Positions 20-29,321 of a stretch of DNA of 64,000 bases are shown piece by piece (within the stretch, counting starts at the first letter, position 1; every line of letters begins with the position of its first letter). The DNA is from Acidimicrobiaceae bacterium. GTDB lineage: Bacteria; Actinomycetota; Acidimicrobiia; Acidimicrobiales; Ilumatobacteraceae. The position numbers and the translations under genes are program-made. Location: assembly GCA_031404435.1 (NCBI GenBank), contig JANNHO010000339.1:543-64542 (forward strand). The letters are read 5' to 3'. The notes below the pieces were generated by a model. It did not search any database and had not been told where the DNA came from. It was given only the letters and a program-made list of their open reading frames with translations.

Positions 20-349
20 GTGGACATGGACATGTCGGCAGCGTATGCAGGCAGGGTGCGCGATGCTGGCACGGTGACCGTACTGATCGACGAGCCGAGG
101 TGGTGGTTCCGTGGTCGGCGGTGGTCGCACCTGGTGAGCGACGAAAGCCTCGACGAACTCCACGCCTTTGCCGCGACGGTGGGCATTCCGCTGCGCGGAT
201 TTCAGGGCGACCACTACGACGTGCCCGAGGACTACCACGCCGAGATGCTGGCCGCTGGGGCGGTGGCCACACCGAGCCGTGACCTGGTTCGCGCACTGCG
301 CGGGGCTGGTCTGCGGCTGAGCCCCGCGCAGCGCCGGGCACGAACCTGA
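20..349 (+). CDS. DUF4031-like conserved hypothetical protein
   Basis: 109-aa track ORF. The motif WWFRGRRWSHLVSDESLDELHAFA..IGIP resembles the DUF4031 family from memory. Confidence 0.6.
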   Translation: MDMDMSAAYAGRVRDAGTVTVLIDEPRWWFRGRRWSHLVSDESLDELHAFAATVGIPLRGFQGDHYDVPEDYHAEMLAAGAVATPSRDLVRALRGAGLRLSPAQRRART

Positions 350-818: not shown

Positions 819-954
819 GGCAACCTCCGAAAGGCAGTGTGTGGGTTGGGCGGGGGAAGCCACTGGGCACCATACGCAGGGGGTCTCACACGGATAGGTG
901 TGGCGGCGGTGTGTCGCCCTACGATCCCCGTCCATGACTGCAGCTGCCGATCGC

Positions 955-1314
955 GTGACGATCTATCACAATCCACATTGAAACTCGTCGATCAATGCCG
1001 TGAGCATTGCTGAAGAACTTGGCGTCGAAGCCGACATCGTTCTCTACATCAAGTCCCCGCCCGACGCAGCAGCGCTGACCGAGATCATCGCCAAACTGGT
1101 TGATTCGCCGACCGCCTTGGTGCGGCGCGACAGCATGTGGGCCAAGCTCGGTCTCACCGACGCCGACGCGGAAACACCGGAGCAGGTGATCGCCCTCCTC
1201 GTCAAGCACAAGCAACTGTTGCAACGGCCGGTGGTGGTGCGTGGCAACACCGCGATCGTCGGCCGCCCGAAGGATCGGGTCCGGCAACTGCTCACGGCCC
1301 CGGCTAGCCAGTAG
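955..1314 (+). CDS. ArsC/Spx-family (arsenate reductase-like) protein with an in-frame TGA at the catalytic Cys position
   Basis: GTG at 955 is in the same frame as track ORF 1000..1314. VTIYHNPH-TGA(979..981)-NSSINAVSIAEELGVEADIVLYIKSPP aligns residue for residue with the ArsC N-terminus ITIYHNPACGTSRNTLEMIRNSGTEPTIILYLENPP, putting the TGA on Cys12. Confidence 0.6.
993..1009 (+). other. small hairpin 11 nt downstream of the in-frame TGA (weak SECIS candidate)
   Basis: CAATGC-cgtga-GCATTG: 6-bp perfect stem with a 5-nt loop containing GU. The loop G lies about 19 nt after the UGA. Confidence 0.3.
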
Positions 1315-1378
1315 CCCACGCGCCTGTCGACACGAGCTCTTCGACCGGCCCCATCCCTTGGGGACGGGCGCGCCTTGG

Positions 1379-1903
1379 ATGACCGGCAGGGAATTGGCGG
1401 AGGTACCGTTCGCATGCATGAGGGGGGACGCAACGAGACCGGCATGGGTGGTGATCCGTCCCGAGTTCGACCCCTGTGCCAGGCCGTTCCACACGATCAC
1501 CGACGAGCAGTGGGGAGTGGCGTGGGAAACGCCGATGCGCGATGTGATCGCGCAGATGCAAGCCGCGTTCCACGCGGGAGCGCGACGGATCGTCATCGTC
1601 GTGCCGACCACAGCGATGTCGGGTGGATCGCGTTTCGCGCACGTAGCTGCGCCGGCAGAAGGTGTCCGCCTCCTCGTCAAGTCGGCTGCTCGTCAATGGG
1701 GCCACCATGGGATCACGGTCAACGCTGTCGCGCTCAGCCCCGACGGCTTTCTCGACGAACCTGATCTGGCCGGACCGACGTCGCTGGCCCCGGCGGCGCT
1801 GCCCACCACCGACGCATCCGCGCTGATCGAGTTCCTGTGCAGCGATGCGTCCGGCGACGTGACCGGGCAGACGATCGTGGTCGACGGCGGGGTGTGGATG
1901 TGA
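1379..1903 (+). CDS. degenerate SDR-like protein lacking the N-terminal Rossmann motif and the catalytic Tyr/Lys
   Basis: The C-terminal two thirds align to the next SDR (..KSAARQWGHHGITVNAVAL.. against ..KSLAREWGHHGITANCIAP..). YxxxK is replaced by HVAAP and there is no TGxxxGxG. Stop overlaps the next start (GTGA). Confidence 0.55.
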   Translation: MTGRELAEVPFACMRGDATRPAWVVIRPEFDPCARPFHTITDEQWGVAWETPMRDVIAQMQAAFHAGARRIVIVVPTTAMSGGSRFAHVAAPAEGVRLLVKSAARQWGHHGITVNAVALSPDGFLDEPDLAGPTSLAPAALPTTDASALIEFLCSDASGDVTGQTIVVDGGVWM

Positions 1904-2670
1904 GCGGCAGGCTCGATGGTCGAGTGGCCATCGTCACAGGGGCGGGGCAAGGGGTTGGCGAGGGCATCGCGCGACGACTCGCAGCCGAAGGTGCCCATGT
2001 GGTCGTGGCCGCTCGGCGTGCCGAGACCGGCGAGCCCGTTGCCGCCTCGATTGTTGCCGCCGGTGGCTCGGCCGTGTGCATCGAGACCGACGTGGCCGAG
2101 CGGGCCAGTGTCGAAGTGTGTGTGCGCGACACAGTCGAGTGCCACGGAGCCCTGCATGTGATGGTGCACAACGCGTTCACCGGCGCGATCGGTCACCGCC
2201 TGGAAGACACCGTCGTCGAGCGACACTGGGAGGCGATGTCGCGCACCGCGGTGTGGGGTTCGTTCTACTGCGCGCAGGCCGCCTACCCGCACCTCGTCGC
2301 CGCCGGGGCACAGGGCCGGTTGATCCTCGTCACGTCGCCGTCGGGTGTGGAGGGCAGCGCCAACATTCCGCTGTACTCGTCGGTCAAGGCGGCGCAACGG
2401 GCGATGGCCAAGAGCCTTGCTCGCGAGTGGGGCCACCACGGCATCACCGCCAATTGCATCGCCCCGGTGGCCGGCAGCCCGGCACTTGTCTCTGCGTTCG
2501 AGCGCAACCCTGCGTTGCGTGAAGCGATCGAGGCGCGCACGCCGCTCGGACGGGTTGGCCACATCACCGACGACATCGGCTCGGTCGCGCTGTTCCTTGC
2601 CAGTGATGACGCCGGCTACGTCACCGGCCAGACCATCGTCTGCGACGGCGGATCGTTCCTGGGCCTGTGA
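1900..2670 (+). CDS. SDR family oxidoreductase (FabG-like)
   Basis: VAIVTGAGQGVGEGIA glycine motif, NAFTG, S...YSSVKAA catalytic motif. GTG start overlaps the upstream stop. Confidence 0.85.
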   Translation: MSGRLDGRVAIVTGAGQGVGEGIARRLAAEGAHVVVAARRAETGEPVAASIVAAGGSAVCIETDVAERASVEVCVRDTVECHGALHVMVHNAFTGAIGHRLEDTVVERHWEAMSRTAVWGSFYCAQAAYPHLVAAGAQGRLILVTSPSGVEGSANIPLYSSVKAAQRAMAKSLAREWGHHGITANCIAPVAGSPALVSAFERNPALREAIEARTPLGRVGHITDDIGSVALFLASDDAGYVTGQTIVCDGGSFLGL

Positions 2671-7123: not shown

Positions 7124-8332
7124 TCAGATGGGCAGGGGGAGCAGTGCGCTGTCGGGGATGACTCCGACGTGGAGCTCGGGGACGGGGTAGGCGAACTCGG
7201 GATACTTGCGTTTCGCCTCGCGGCGGTAGCGGGTGGTGGAGTGCTCGGGGTCGCGGTCGAATTCGGGGATGACGTGCTTGCCGAACAGTTCGAGGCATTC
7301 GAGCACCTCTTCGTGTTCGAAGCCCTCGTTGGGCAGGCCGAACACGAGTTGGTCGCAGCCGACGGTGGAGTACCGCTGGACCTGTTCGGCGACCTCGTCG
7401 GGCGTGCCGCACAACAGGTAGCCGGCTTCGATCAGCCCGTCGAGCATCGACTCATCGGGGATGGAGAACGGCGGCTCGGGCCAGGTTGGGTAGCCGGCCT
7501 TCTTCGGCATCGTGTCGTGGTACATGCACACCATCGAGTACAGGTAGCCGCGGCCACGGCTCATCGCGATCTGGCGGGCCCTGGCCCGGTCCTCGAGGCA
7601 GATGACTGCGTTGGTCATCATCAGGTTGTCGTTGACGAATTGGCCGATCACCTCGGCTGGGTTGGCGATTGCTTCCTTGTATGCGGCGATCCGCTCGGTG
7701 AGGCCGAAGATCGGCTCGAAGTTGAATGCGATCGCCCCGAGCCCCATCGAACCGGCCTTGGCGAAGGTTTCCGGGTTGCCGCACGCGACCCACATCGCCG
7801 GATGCCCGACGCCCCACGGCTTCGGCAGGATGTTGTGCGGCTTCGGCACGCTGAAGTGCTTGCCCTCGAAGGCGTAGTCGCGTTGTTCCCACATGCGTGG
7901 GATCTGGTGGATCACCTCGTCCCACATGCTCTTGGTCTCGGCCGGGGTGATCCCGTTGAACGCGGCGACCTCGTGGCTACCCGCGCCGCGGCCGGTGCCG
8001 AACTCGTAGCGTCCCTCGGTGATGTGGTCGAGCATCGCCGCCCGCTCGGCCAGGCGGACCGGGTGCTCCTTGGTGGTCGGAAAGCTGACGATGCCCGATG
8101 AGAGGTGGATCTGGTCGGTTCGTGCGGCGACGTAGCCCATCATCACCTCGGGCGCCGACATGTGGCTGTACTCGGTGAGCGAGTGGTGCTCACCGAACCA
8201 GGCGTATTTCCAGTTGAACTTGTCGGCGTGAATCGCGTACCCCGCCTCACGCATCAGCGCGGTGTGCTCGCAGTTGGTGTCGTGGGCGGCGGGCCCGGGG
8301 ATGTAGCCATTGAGAAAGATCCCGAATTCCAT
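7124..8332 (-). CDS. LLM-class flavin-dependent oxidoreductase (luciferase-like monooxygenase)
   Basis: Track ORF 7124..8722 trimmed to ATG 8332 (MEFGIFLNGYIPGP...). FNWKYAWFGEHH and other luciferase-like features. Confidence 0.85.
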   Translation of the reverse strand: MEFGIFLNGYIPGPAAHDTNCEHTALMREAGYAIHADKFNWKYAWFGEHHSLTEYSHMSAPEVMMGYVAARTDQIHLSSGIVSFPTTKEHPVRLAERAAMLDHITEGRYEFGTGRGAGSHEVAAFNGITPAETKSMWDEVIHQIPRMWEQRDYAFEGKHFSVPKPHNILPKPWGVGHPAMWVACGNPETFAKAGSMGLGAIAFNFEPIFGLTERIAAYKEAIANPAEVIGQFVNDNLMMTNAVICLEDRARARQIAMSRGRGYLYSMVCMYHDTMPKKAGYPTWPEPPFSIPDESMLDGLIEAGYLLCGTPDEVAEQVQRYSTVGCDQLVFGLPNEGFEHEEVLECLELFGKHVIPEFDRDPEHSTTRYRREAKRKYPEFAYPVPELHVGVIPDSALLPLPI

Positions 8333-22220: not shown

Positions 22221-23027
22221 TCAGGGGTGTTGGGAGCTGACGCTCACTACCTCGCCGGTCATGTACGAGCTGTACTGCGAGGCGAGGAACACGATGACGT
22301 TGGCGATCTCCCATGGTTCAGCGGCGCGGCCGAACGCTTCCCGTGACGTCAACTCCGTAAGCAATTCGGGCGAGGTCACCTTGGCCAGGTTGGCGTGCAT
22401 CGCCAGGCTTGGCGCCACGGCATTGATCCGCACACCGCGGGGCGCGGCTTCGATGGCCGTGCAACGGGTGAACGCCATTACCCCTGCCTTCGCCGCGGCA
22501 TAGTGCGCTTGGCCGGCCTGCGCCCGCCATCCGAGGACCGACGCGTTGTTGACGATGACGCCGGCACCACGCGGGTACATGTGTGCAAGCGCAGCCCTGG
22601 TGACCCGGAACGTACCGGTGAGGGTGACATCGAGCACCAGCGACCACTGCGCATCCGTCATCTCATGCACCTCGGCGGTACCACCGAGACCGGCGTTGTT
22701 GACAACGACATCGATCCCGCCGAGGGCCTCGGCCGCTCCATCGATCATGGCCTGCACGCTCGATTCATCGGTGACGTCGGCGACGATGCAGAGCACGCCC
22801 AACTCCTCGGCGGTCTCGCGGAGCCGCCGCTCGTGCTTGTCGGCGATCACCACCCGCGCTCCTTCGGCGAGACATCGCTGCGCTGTGGCCGAACCGATGC
22901 CGCTGCCCGCCGCGGCGGTGACGAGCACTCCTGTGCCGAGGAGCAGCCCGTGGGCCGGGGGCGGGGCGGCGGGCGGGTTCGGGCGAGGGGCGGCGGGCGG
23001 GTTCGGGCGAGGTGCCGGTGGGGTCAT
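22221..23027 (-). CDS. SDR family oxidoreductase (position equivalent to IpdF/Rv3559c)
   Basis: TAAAGSGIGSATA, NNAG, S..G......YAAAKAG. It lies immediately downstream of an acyl-CoA dehydrogenase, like Rv3560c-Rv3559c. Confidence 0.8.
   Translation of the reverse strand: MTPPAPRPNPPAAPRPNPPAAPPPAHGLLLGTGVLVTAAAGSGIGSATAQRCLAEGARVVIADKHERRLRETAEELGVLCIVADVTDESSVQAMIDGAAEALGGIDVVVNNAGLGGTAEVHEMTDAQWSLVLDVTLTGTFRVTRAALAHMYPRGAGVIVNNASVLGWRAQAGQAHYAAAKAGVMAFTRCTAIEAAPRGVRINAVAPSLAMHANLAKVTSPELLTELTSREAFGRAAEPWEIANVIVFLASQYSSYMTGEVVSVSSQHP
22963..23010 (-). repeat. perfect 24-bp x2 tandem duplication in the SDR N-terminus (APRPNPPA x2)
   Basis: ggggcggcgggcgggttcgggcga occurs twice in direct succession (22963-22986 and 22987-23010). 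Confidence 0.9.

Positions 23028-27111: not shown

Positions 27112-29321
<2,210 letters not shown>

Follow-up and report, generated by a model that had tools for sequence, protein, structure and literature searches.

A predicted UxxS selenoprotein of the ArsC family and its SECIS-like hairpin in Acidimicrobiia

Arsenate reductase-like proteins with selenocysteine (Sec, U) at the active site have been described several times. The Sargasso Sea study (Zhang, Fomenko & Gladyshev, 2005; PMC1088965) introduced, among other new selenoprotein families, a group of 14 sequences termed "Arsenate reductase, UXXS", and an "ArsC-like" selenoprotein is present in Desulfotalea and Desulfuromonas, two Deltaproteobacteria (Zhang et al., 2006; PMC1794560). 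"Arsenate reductase 1 (UxxS)" was found in 3 organisms of more than 5200 genomes (Peng et al., 2016; PMC5029168, Table S3), and a review of 2026 lists arsenate reductase UxxS with the model TIGR00014 (PMC13188914). The initial annotation of the locus treated here stated that ArsC-like selenoproteins are known from metagenomes, which is correct (PMC1088965, PMC1794560).

The locus lies in a stretch of DNA of 64,000 nucleotides, which was analysed as a whole and is called the window. Positions 934–1314 (+) very probably encode a 126-residue ArsC-type reductase of the glutaredoxin clade, with a thioredoxin fold, in which the UGA at 979–981 is recoded with the aid of a hairpin and supplies Sec as the nucleophile. 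The TGA had been seen either as a selenocysteine codon or as the mark of a single-hit pseudogene. The first of these is now strongly supported, in that homologues have TGC at the same column and the synonymous sites of the hairpin are frozen only in the TGA forms.

Reading frame, start site and active site

When read from GTG 955, the frame gives VTIYHNPH, then the TGA, then NSSINAVSIAEELG..., and runs for 120 codons including the stop to TAG 1312–1314. The TGA is the sole interruption of this ArsC-family frame, as had been noted at the outset. The start proposed at that time, GTG 955, is less well chosen. An in-frame ATG is located 10–15 codons upstream of the TGA or TGC in 75 of 81 orthologues, and the one at 934, 15 codons upstream of the TGA, is probably the true start here. 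The product from ATG 934 begins MTAAADRVTIYHNPHUNSSINAV.... Upstream regions point to the manner of initiation as well. In 67 of 68 distinct orthologous upstream regions a TANNNT hexamer ends 5–8 nt before the start ATG, whereas an SD-like motif appears in just two; together these upstream motifs suggest a leaderless mRNA. Features of the locus are collected in Table 1.

Table 1. Features of the predicted selenoprotein gene (positions in the window)
Feature	Position	Strand	Remarks
TACGAT, -10-like TANNNT hexamer	920..925	+	8 nt 5' of ATG 934, without Shine-Dalgarno
UxxS selenoprotein CDS, predicted	934..1314	+	ATG 934; Sec (UGA) is codon 16; TAG stop 1312-1314; 126 codons
GTG, start in the initial annotation	955..957	+	more likely an internal Val codon (Val8)
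In-frame TGA, predicted selenocysteine codon	979..981	+	motif U-N-S-S (UxxS); aligned to Cys12 of R773 ArsC
11-nt spacer	982..992	+	encodes N-S-S-I (partial)
Predicted bacterial SECIS core	993..1009	+	stem 993-998 with 1004-1009 (6 bp); apical loop 999-1003, CGUGA
104-aa truncated ORF, without active site	1000..1314	+	annotation artefact of gene callers

The family assignment rests on profile scores taken with the TGA stop (U) replaced by Cys. The Pfam model ArsC (PF03960) matches over its full length and above its cut-off (E=3e-12). By far the best NCBIfam model is TIGR00014, arsC (E~1e-27 to 2e-27), although the 95.9–96.2 bits of the window protein are under the equivalog cut-off of 106.05. 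The Cys homologues of the clade also stay under this cut-off, with 96–103 bits. Spx/MgsR regulators were considered and set aside, as the motif is UNSS and not CxxC and the scores are low (TIGR01617, 39.9 bits with a cut-off of 75.05; NF002459, 22.4 with a cut-off of 123). The UxxC "arsenate reductase-like" family (NF041106) was likewise rejected; its motif differs, and NF041106 is not among the NCBIfam matches.

Alignment to the R773/E. coli ArsC structures (1I9D/1JZW) is colinear over 113 residues (E~2e-15) with a constant offset of +3. The TGA falls on Cys12 of R773 ArsC, which bears out the original claim that it replaces the nucleophilic cysteine, and the equivalents of His8, Ser15, Arg60, Arg94 and Arg107 are all kept. 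The mechanical ORF 1000..1314, on the other hand, opens at a GTG inside the hairpin loop. A protein that starts there has neither strand beta-1 nor the catalytic loop, and the remark that this ORF is without an active site is thus accurate. The exact sequence of the 104-aa truncated call is present in an NCBI-derived protein collection.

Orthologues and selection around the UGA

With one genome scanned for each GTDB species, 570 relatives were confirmed. The best 80 of these were kept, and the loci come almost all from MAGs of Acidimicrobiia/Ilumatobacteraceae. In the comparison of orthologues that had been proposed for the Cys12 column, TGA is found in 73 of these best 80 loci and TGC in the other seven. 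The closest relative among the 80, an Acidimicrobiales MAG (L001), has the same TGA at 91–94% nucleotide identity. The TGA forms as a group are by no means near-identical, showing 61–100% nucleotide identity outside the hairpin with a median of 74%. Additional stops or frameshifts, which had been named as evidence that would count against a functional gene, were looked for and are not present in any TGA-form orthologue.

Protein searches bring up two kinds of entries. There are many full-length Cys forms of 117–124 aa that read HNPNCNSS, and there are many homologues of 99–104 aa, all of which start at "SIAEELG". The shorter entries form the pattern to be expected if a conserved TGA is taken for a stop by gene callers.

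When 73 distinct TGA-form genes are compared codon by codon, both sides of the TGA are informative. The peptide on its 5' side, V/A-T-I-Y/F-H-N, is kept as amino acids with ordinary synonymous variation. On the 3' side, codons +6 and +9 are Ser in 72–73 of the 73 genes, and are written as TCG, TCC, TCA, TCT, AGC or AGT, i.e. from both the TCN and the AGY block. A switch between these blocks needs two nucleotide changes and is therefore explained only by selection on the encoded residue; that it takes place just after the TGA indicates that translation continues through this codon. Judged by these codon patterns, the stretch between the TGA and GTG 1000 is selected at the protein level, and the encoded peptide is under purifying selection before as well as after the TGA.

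These data bear directly on the pseudogene, i.e. a recent TGC/TGT to TGA nonsense mutation in an ordinary Cys-ArsC gene. The change from TGC to TGA takes a single step, and the window shows none of the Sec machinery; both would agree with such a mutation. A recent lesion does not, however, recur in 73 of 80 loci that have a median identity of 74% outside the hairpin, nor does it leave every orthologue free of further disruptions and the amino acids maintained, amid synonymous turnover, both before and after the stop. The pseudogene is rejected, its probability being close to nil.

It should be pointed out that TGA is a genuine stop codon in this organism. It terminates 39 of 51 high-GC3 coding segments in the window, and TGA is not reassigned in the source genome.

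The hairpin and decoding of the UGA

The hairpin CAATGC-CGTGA-GCATTG was originally reported at 993–1009, beginning 11 nt after the TGA and with GU in its loop, and this is exactly what is found. The distance from the UGA to the loop is 17 nt, and the GU occupies loop positions 2–3. A concern raised at the same time, that a bacterial SECIS would be expected to be longer, does not hold up. The published bSECIS consensus calls for a loop of 3–9 nt, an upper stem of 4–16 bp, a G[G/U] whose G is at loop position 1 or 2 and an MFE <= -7.5 kcal/mol (PMC13188914), and for 16–37 nt from UGA to loop (PMC13188914; the spacing also in PMC10778597). The hairpin has a loop of 5 nt, CGUGA, a stem of 6 bp and a spacing of 17 nt, which are all within the consensus; its -7.4 kcal/mol is borderline with respect to the energy value.

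As a single sequence the hairpin is not impressive. The fold of the 42-nt region 979–1020 has -7.4 kcal/mol (z=-0.45) and is no better than shuffles, and the 21-nt hairpin core gives z=-2.2. The corresponding regions of many orthologues are more stable, owing to an extra G-C pair. The hairpin of the window is thus thermodynamically unexceptional alone, and its significance comes from the comparison of orthologues. An extended lower stem (988–990/985–986 with 1011–1013/1015–1016) was also considered and discarded; it is seen in the single-sequence fold of the window only, and in a set of 66 distinct orthologues it fares no better than shuffles do, with 21–40 sequences unpaired for each pair.

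The orthologues tell a different story for the 6-bp helix. All six pairs are kept in 73 of 74 TGA forms, as against two to four of the six in the seven Cys forms. The 17-nt segment at +14 that makes up the hairpin is the most conserved part of the gene, with a mean pairwise identity of 0.947 compared with a median of 0.751. Six consecutive codons, +12 to +27, show a synonymous entropy of at most 0.1 bit vs ~1–2 bits elsewhere, and this is the only such run in the gene. In the TGA forms, the Ala and Val codons of the hairpin are GCC and GTG (72/73 each). Ile at +27 is ATT in 72 of 73 distinct TGA forms but ATC in all seven Cys forms; Asn at +15 is AAT, never AAC, in the 61 TGA forms that have Asn, while five of the seven Cys forms have AAC. 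In the remainder of the same genes, ATC for Ile and AAC for Asn prevail by far. Within the stem a single change is seen, from AAT to AGT (Asn to Ser), by which an A-U pair becomes G-U and pairing is preserved; AAC, the synonymous alternative to AAT that would disrupt the pair, is absent from TGA forms. The RNAalifold consensus consists of just the 6-bp helix, and there are no compensatory double substitutions. On this comparative evidence, the hairpin is constrained at the RNA level, and the constraint goes with the presence of the UGA. Five of the seven Cys forms have TGA forms as their nearest relatives, which suggests repeated Sec/Cys switches, each accompanied by loss of the hairpin.

The conserved nucleotides could in principle serve reinitiation, such that the TGA ends a 15-codon leader and a 104-aa protein restarts at GTG 1000. 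This GTG is a potential start codon that is invariant in 72 of 73 distinct sequences, and the 99–104-aa calls in public collections would fit. The product, however, would be devoid of strand beta-1 and the catalytic loop with His8, Cys12 and Ser15, and the Cys forms are colinear full-length proteins. Also, N-S-S-x-N-A between the TGA and the GTG is kept as amino acids, with Ser changing codon blocks, and the constraint has the form of a perfect inverted repeat and not of an SD-like purine run. Two-part translation is extremely unlikely.

A further question is which amino acid is placed at the UGA. Alternation of Sec and Cys at a catalytic nucleophile is the classic signature of a selenoprotein. 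The UGA might also be read by a near-cognate Trp, Cys or Arg tRNA with the hairpin as stimulator, or by a suppressor tRNA specific to the lineage, and the small size and thermodynamic weakness of the hairpin, together with the failure to find Sec machinery in the window and orthologue flanks, could be taken in favour of this. Yet the UGA alternates with Cys codons only, and does so at the position of the catalytic nucleophile. The stop codon used most in the window is TGA. The geometry and G-U loop of the hairpin match the bSECIS consensus (PMC13188914), and cultured relatives have SelA, SelB and SelD as well as rich selenoproteomes (PMC5029168). Decoding as an amino acid other than Sec is very unlikely.

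With respect to the machinery itself, ARAGORN detects no tRNA-Sec in the 64-kb window or in any orthologous locus, and a scan of the 64-kb window at Rfam gathering thresholds gives no match. Searches by tblastn with E. coli SelA, SelB and SelD find no selA, selB or selD in the window and 1.15 Mb of orthologue flanks; just two weak G-domain matches are returned. Outside these regions, Ilumatobacter coccineus and I. nonamiensis are SelD+/SelA+/SelB+ and have 15 and 10 selenoproteins, respectively (Peng et al., 2016; PMC5029168, Tables S1 and S2), and a 2026 preprint describes selA/B/C/D in all 84 complete genomes of Actinomarina, likewise Acidimicrobiia.

Other candidate Sec codons were sought in the same DNA. 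At TGA 7124 and TGA 22221 high-GC3 segments abut in the same frame; in both cases a gene simply ends there and the one that follows is unrelated. When a descriptor that combines a TGA with a bSECIS-like hairpin was used to scan the window, the sole match was at 27844(+), opposite a minus-strand gene, and this was judged antisense noise; the scan is weak evidence in any case, because its filters missed the ArsC gene itself. A homology screen of the locus flanks for U/C-polymorphic in-frame TGAs gave mostly shadow frames and conserved true stops, and no convincing second selenoprotein.

The preferred reading, selenocysteine insertion, can be put as a sequence of steps. A ribosome that arrives at UGA 979–981 would have the hairpin standing 11 nt downstream. 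The 6-bp stem with its CGUGA loop would recruit SelB-GTP-Sec-tRNA(Sec), and this complex would outcompete RF2, so that Sec is inserted at codon 16 and translation runs on to TAG 1312. In the folded protein, the U-x-x-S active site would adjoin the oxyanion-binding Arg triad (equivalents of R773 Arg60, Arg94 and Arg107). If the chemistry is like that of R773 ArsC, the selenolate may attack bound arsenate or a similar oxyanion, and a low-molecular-weight thiol or a glutaredoxin-like partner might then resolve the adduct. It is from the gene and its relatives that we infer the participation of SelB and tRNA-Sec, the incorporation of selenium, the substrate and the reductant.

Function and comparison with described systems

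The Arg triad and the U-x-x-S motif likely reflect chemistry of the R773 type on arsenate or a similar oxyanion. Genes of an ars operon (arsB/ACR3/arsR/arsA) are not found near the gene in the window, and none is conserved across the 80 loci. The neighbours in the window are DUF4031, a protein of unknown function, two SDR-like genes, EthD and others, and those that recur across orthologous loci are DUF4031, the unknown protein, an HD-like protein and an ABC transporter. As no ars operon genes are nearby, the function as an arsenate reductase is not secured; it nevertheless appears fairly probable for the predicted UNSS selenoprotein.

Perhaps the protein does contain Sec but does not reduce arsenate, and is an ArsC-fold selenol reductase that acts on another substrate or has a housekeeping redox function. 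The whole clade scores at 96–103 bits, just under the TIGR00014 cut-off, ars genes are missing from the vicinity, and U-N-S-S differs from the C-G-T-S-R-N of R773. Against this, TIGR00014 is by far the best model, the oxyanion triad, His8 and Ser15 are all maintained, and UxxS proteins are classed as arsenate reductases in published catalogues (PMC1088965, PMC13188914). A different substrate is possible, if on the unlikely side. A wider conjecture is that the clade represents a lineage-wide housekeeping selenol reductase that acts on another substrate and not in arsenic detoxification. Its mRNA would be leaderless, with Sec only 10–15 codons from the 5' end and an unusually minimal, invariant 17-nt SECIS, whose CGUG loop would be a lineage-specific SelB recognition code. 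Taken as a whole, this conjecture is doubtful.

Recognition of the Sec codon has consequences for annotation. Dozens of orthologues in public collections are N-terminally truncated ORFs of 99–104 aa that have lost the active site; with the Sec codon recognised, the real protein is restored and the source organism is flagged as Sec-decoding. The Sec form of ArsC was once seen as rare, and it is predominant among species-level genomes of Acidimicrobiia (73 of the best 80 loci) from freshwater, soil and groundwater. The clade also offers a natural experiment, in which a minimal SECIS is held by synonymous constraint alone under a UGA and decays when UGA becomes UGC. What is added to the known UxxS family is thus the dominance of Sec in Acidimicrobiia, the invariant minimal 17-mer SECIS, the apparently leaderless mRNA and the systematic truncated calls. 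The known picture of bacterial Sec decoding is unchanged, as both family and mechanism were already established.

The predicted SECIS resembles those of E. coli fdhF and fdnG in being a coding-region hairpin just 3' of the UGA with a small apical loop that contains G-U and lies 17 nt from the UGA. It differs from these, and from the bSECIS model, in having no bulged U, a stem of 6 bp and no conserved lower helix; the loop in the window clade is CGUG(A/C/G), and the MFE of ~-7.4 kcal/mol is at the edge of the threshold. In work by Liu et al. in 1998, the minimal E. coli fdhF SECIS is reported to be a 17-nt upper stem-loop located 11 nt from the UGA. The geometry of the window hairpin, an 11-nt spacer and a 17-nt stem-loop, matches that minimal element.

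With the glutaredoxin-coupled ArsC of R773/E. coli (1I9D, 1J9B, 1JZW; TIGR00014), the window protein shares the nucleophile at position 12, His8, Ser15 and the Arg triad. It differs in the predicted Sec in place of Cys and in having UNSS where R773 has CGTSRN, and it is also under the equivalog cut-off and outside an ars operon. The "arsenate reductase 2 / arsenate reductase-like" proteins (NF041106) are also named after arsenate reductase but are UxxC and not UxxS.

The closest system remains the UxxS family. As in that family, there is an ArsC fold of the COG1393/TIGR00014 type with one Sec, in U-x-x-S, at the catalytic Cys, a bSECIS-like hairpin directly downstream, and widespread Cys homologues. 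Fold, motif and Sec position are the same, and the gene in the window is therefore a mis-annotated new member of the UxxS selenoprotein family described in 2005, the likeness being one to the published descriptions of these three properties. The difference is one of prevalence. The Sec form was earlier found in 14 Sargasso reads, in two Deltaproteobacteria and in 3 of >5200 genomes, and among the best 80 of the 570 relatives found here it is the majority form.

The UGA codon and start of the ArsC-like gene

The predicted ATG of the ArsC-like selenoprotein gene is preceded at 5–8 nt by the end of a TANNNT hexamer in 67 of 68 distinct orthologous upstream regions, and SD-like motifs are found in only two of the 68. 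This pattern suggests a leaderless selenoprotein mRNA in which just 10–15 codons separate the Sec codon from the 5′ end.

The codon before the UGA (window 976–978 and orthologues) has T as third base in 68 of 74 TGA forms, i.e. orthologues with TGA at the catalytic Cys12 column (CAT 58 vs CAC 3; AAT 10 vs AAC 2). In the Cys forms, which have TGC at this column, the preceding codon is mostly NAC. An A directly follows the UGA in 68/74 TGA forms, and U-UGA-A may represent a context preference for recoding.

High-GC3 coding segments abut in the same frame across a TGA at 7124–7126 and at 22221–22223, both on the (−) strand. The translation of the first gives the end of a luciferase-like monooxygenase and then an unrelated SnoaL-like protein, and that of the second the end of an SDR and then an unrelated membrane protein. 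At both sites an ordinary gene simply ends and an unrelated one comes next; neither is a read-through candidate.

Neighbouring genes

Linkage between the DUF4031 gene and the ArsC-like gene is conserved: the former lies ≤4 kb upstream in 43 of 80 orthologous loci (L001–L080, the best 80 of 570 relatives). Homologues of the 143-aa protein, which ends in ...LELLEWFVIGPAGTECPRDLFGEPARW and has no matches in a Pfam search, occupy the same position in ~31 of the 80.

Features around the ArsC-like gene
Feature	Window position	Strand	Remarks
DUF4031 gene	20–349	+	Same strand as ArsC-like gene; PF13223, E=5e-31
143-aa protein gene	390–818	−	Divergently transcribed; good GGAGG ribosome-binding site
TACGAT (TANNNT-type hexamer)	within 920–936		Upstream of predicted ATG; compared with L001–L080
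Truncated ORF entries	1000–1314		Proteins P0001, P0002, P0080–P0120, P0121
SDR-like ORF, first of adjacent pair	1241–1903	+	adh_short_C2, C-terminal part only
Complete SDR, second of adjacent pair	1837–2670	+	

In pairwise alignment with L001, the closest locus, ~68 nt directly 3′ of the ArsC-like stop codon (window 1314–1381) are absent from L001; the alignment is interrupted at window 1313/1382, L001 is contiguous at 1477/1478, and identity is otherwise 91–94%. The first SDR-like ORF, which matches profile positions 86–235 of 236, may be a truncated paralogue or an ORF with a mis-set start.

Gene calls in public collections

The selenoprotein is systematically misannotated across public protein collections, including NCBI-sourced ones. 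The ArsC-like gene and dozens of its orthologues are stored as N-terminally truncated ORFs of 99–104 aa, which begin at a GTG or ATG within the loop of the predicted SECIS hairpin.
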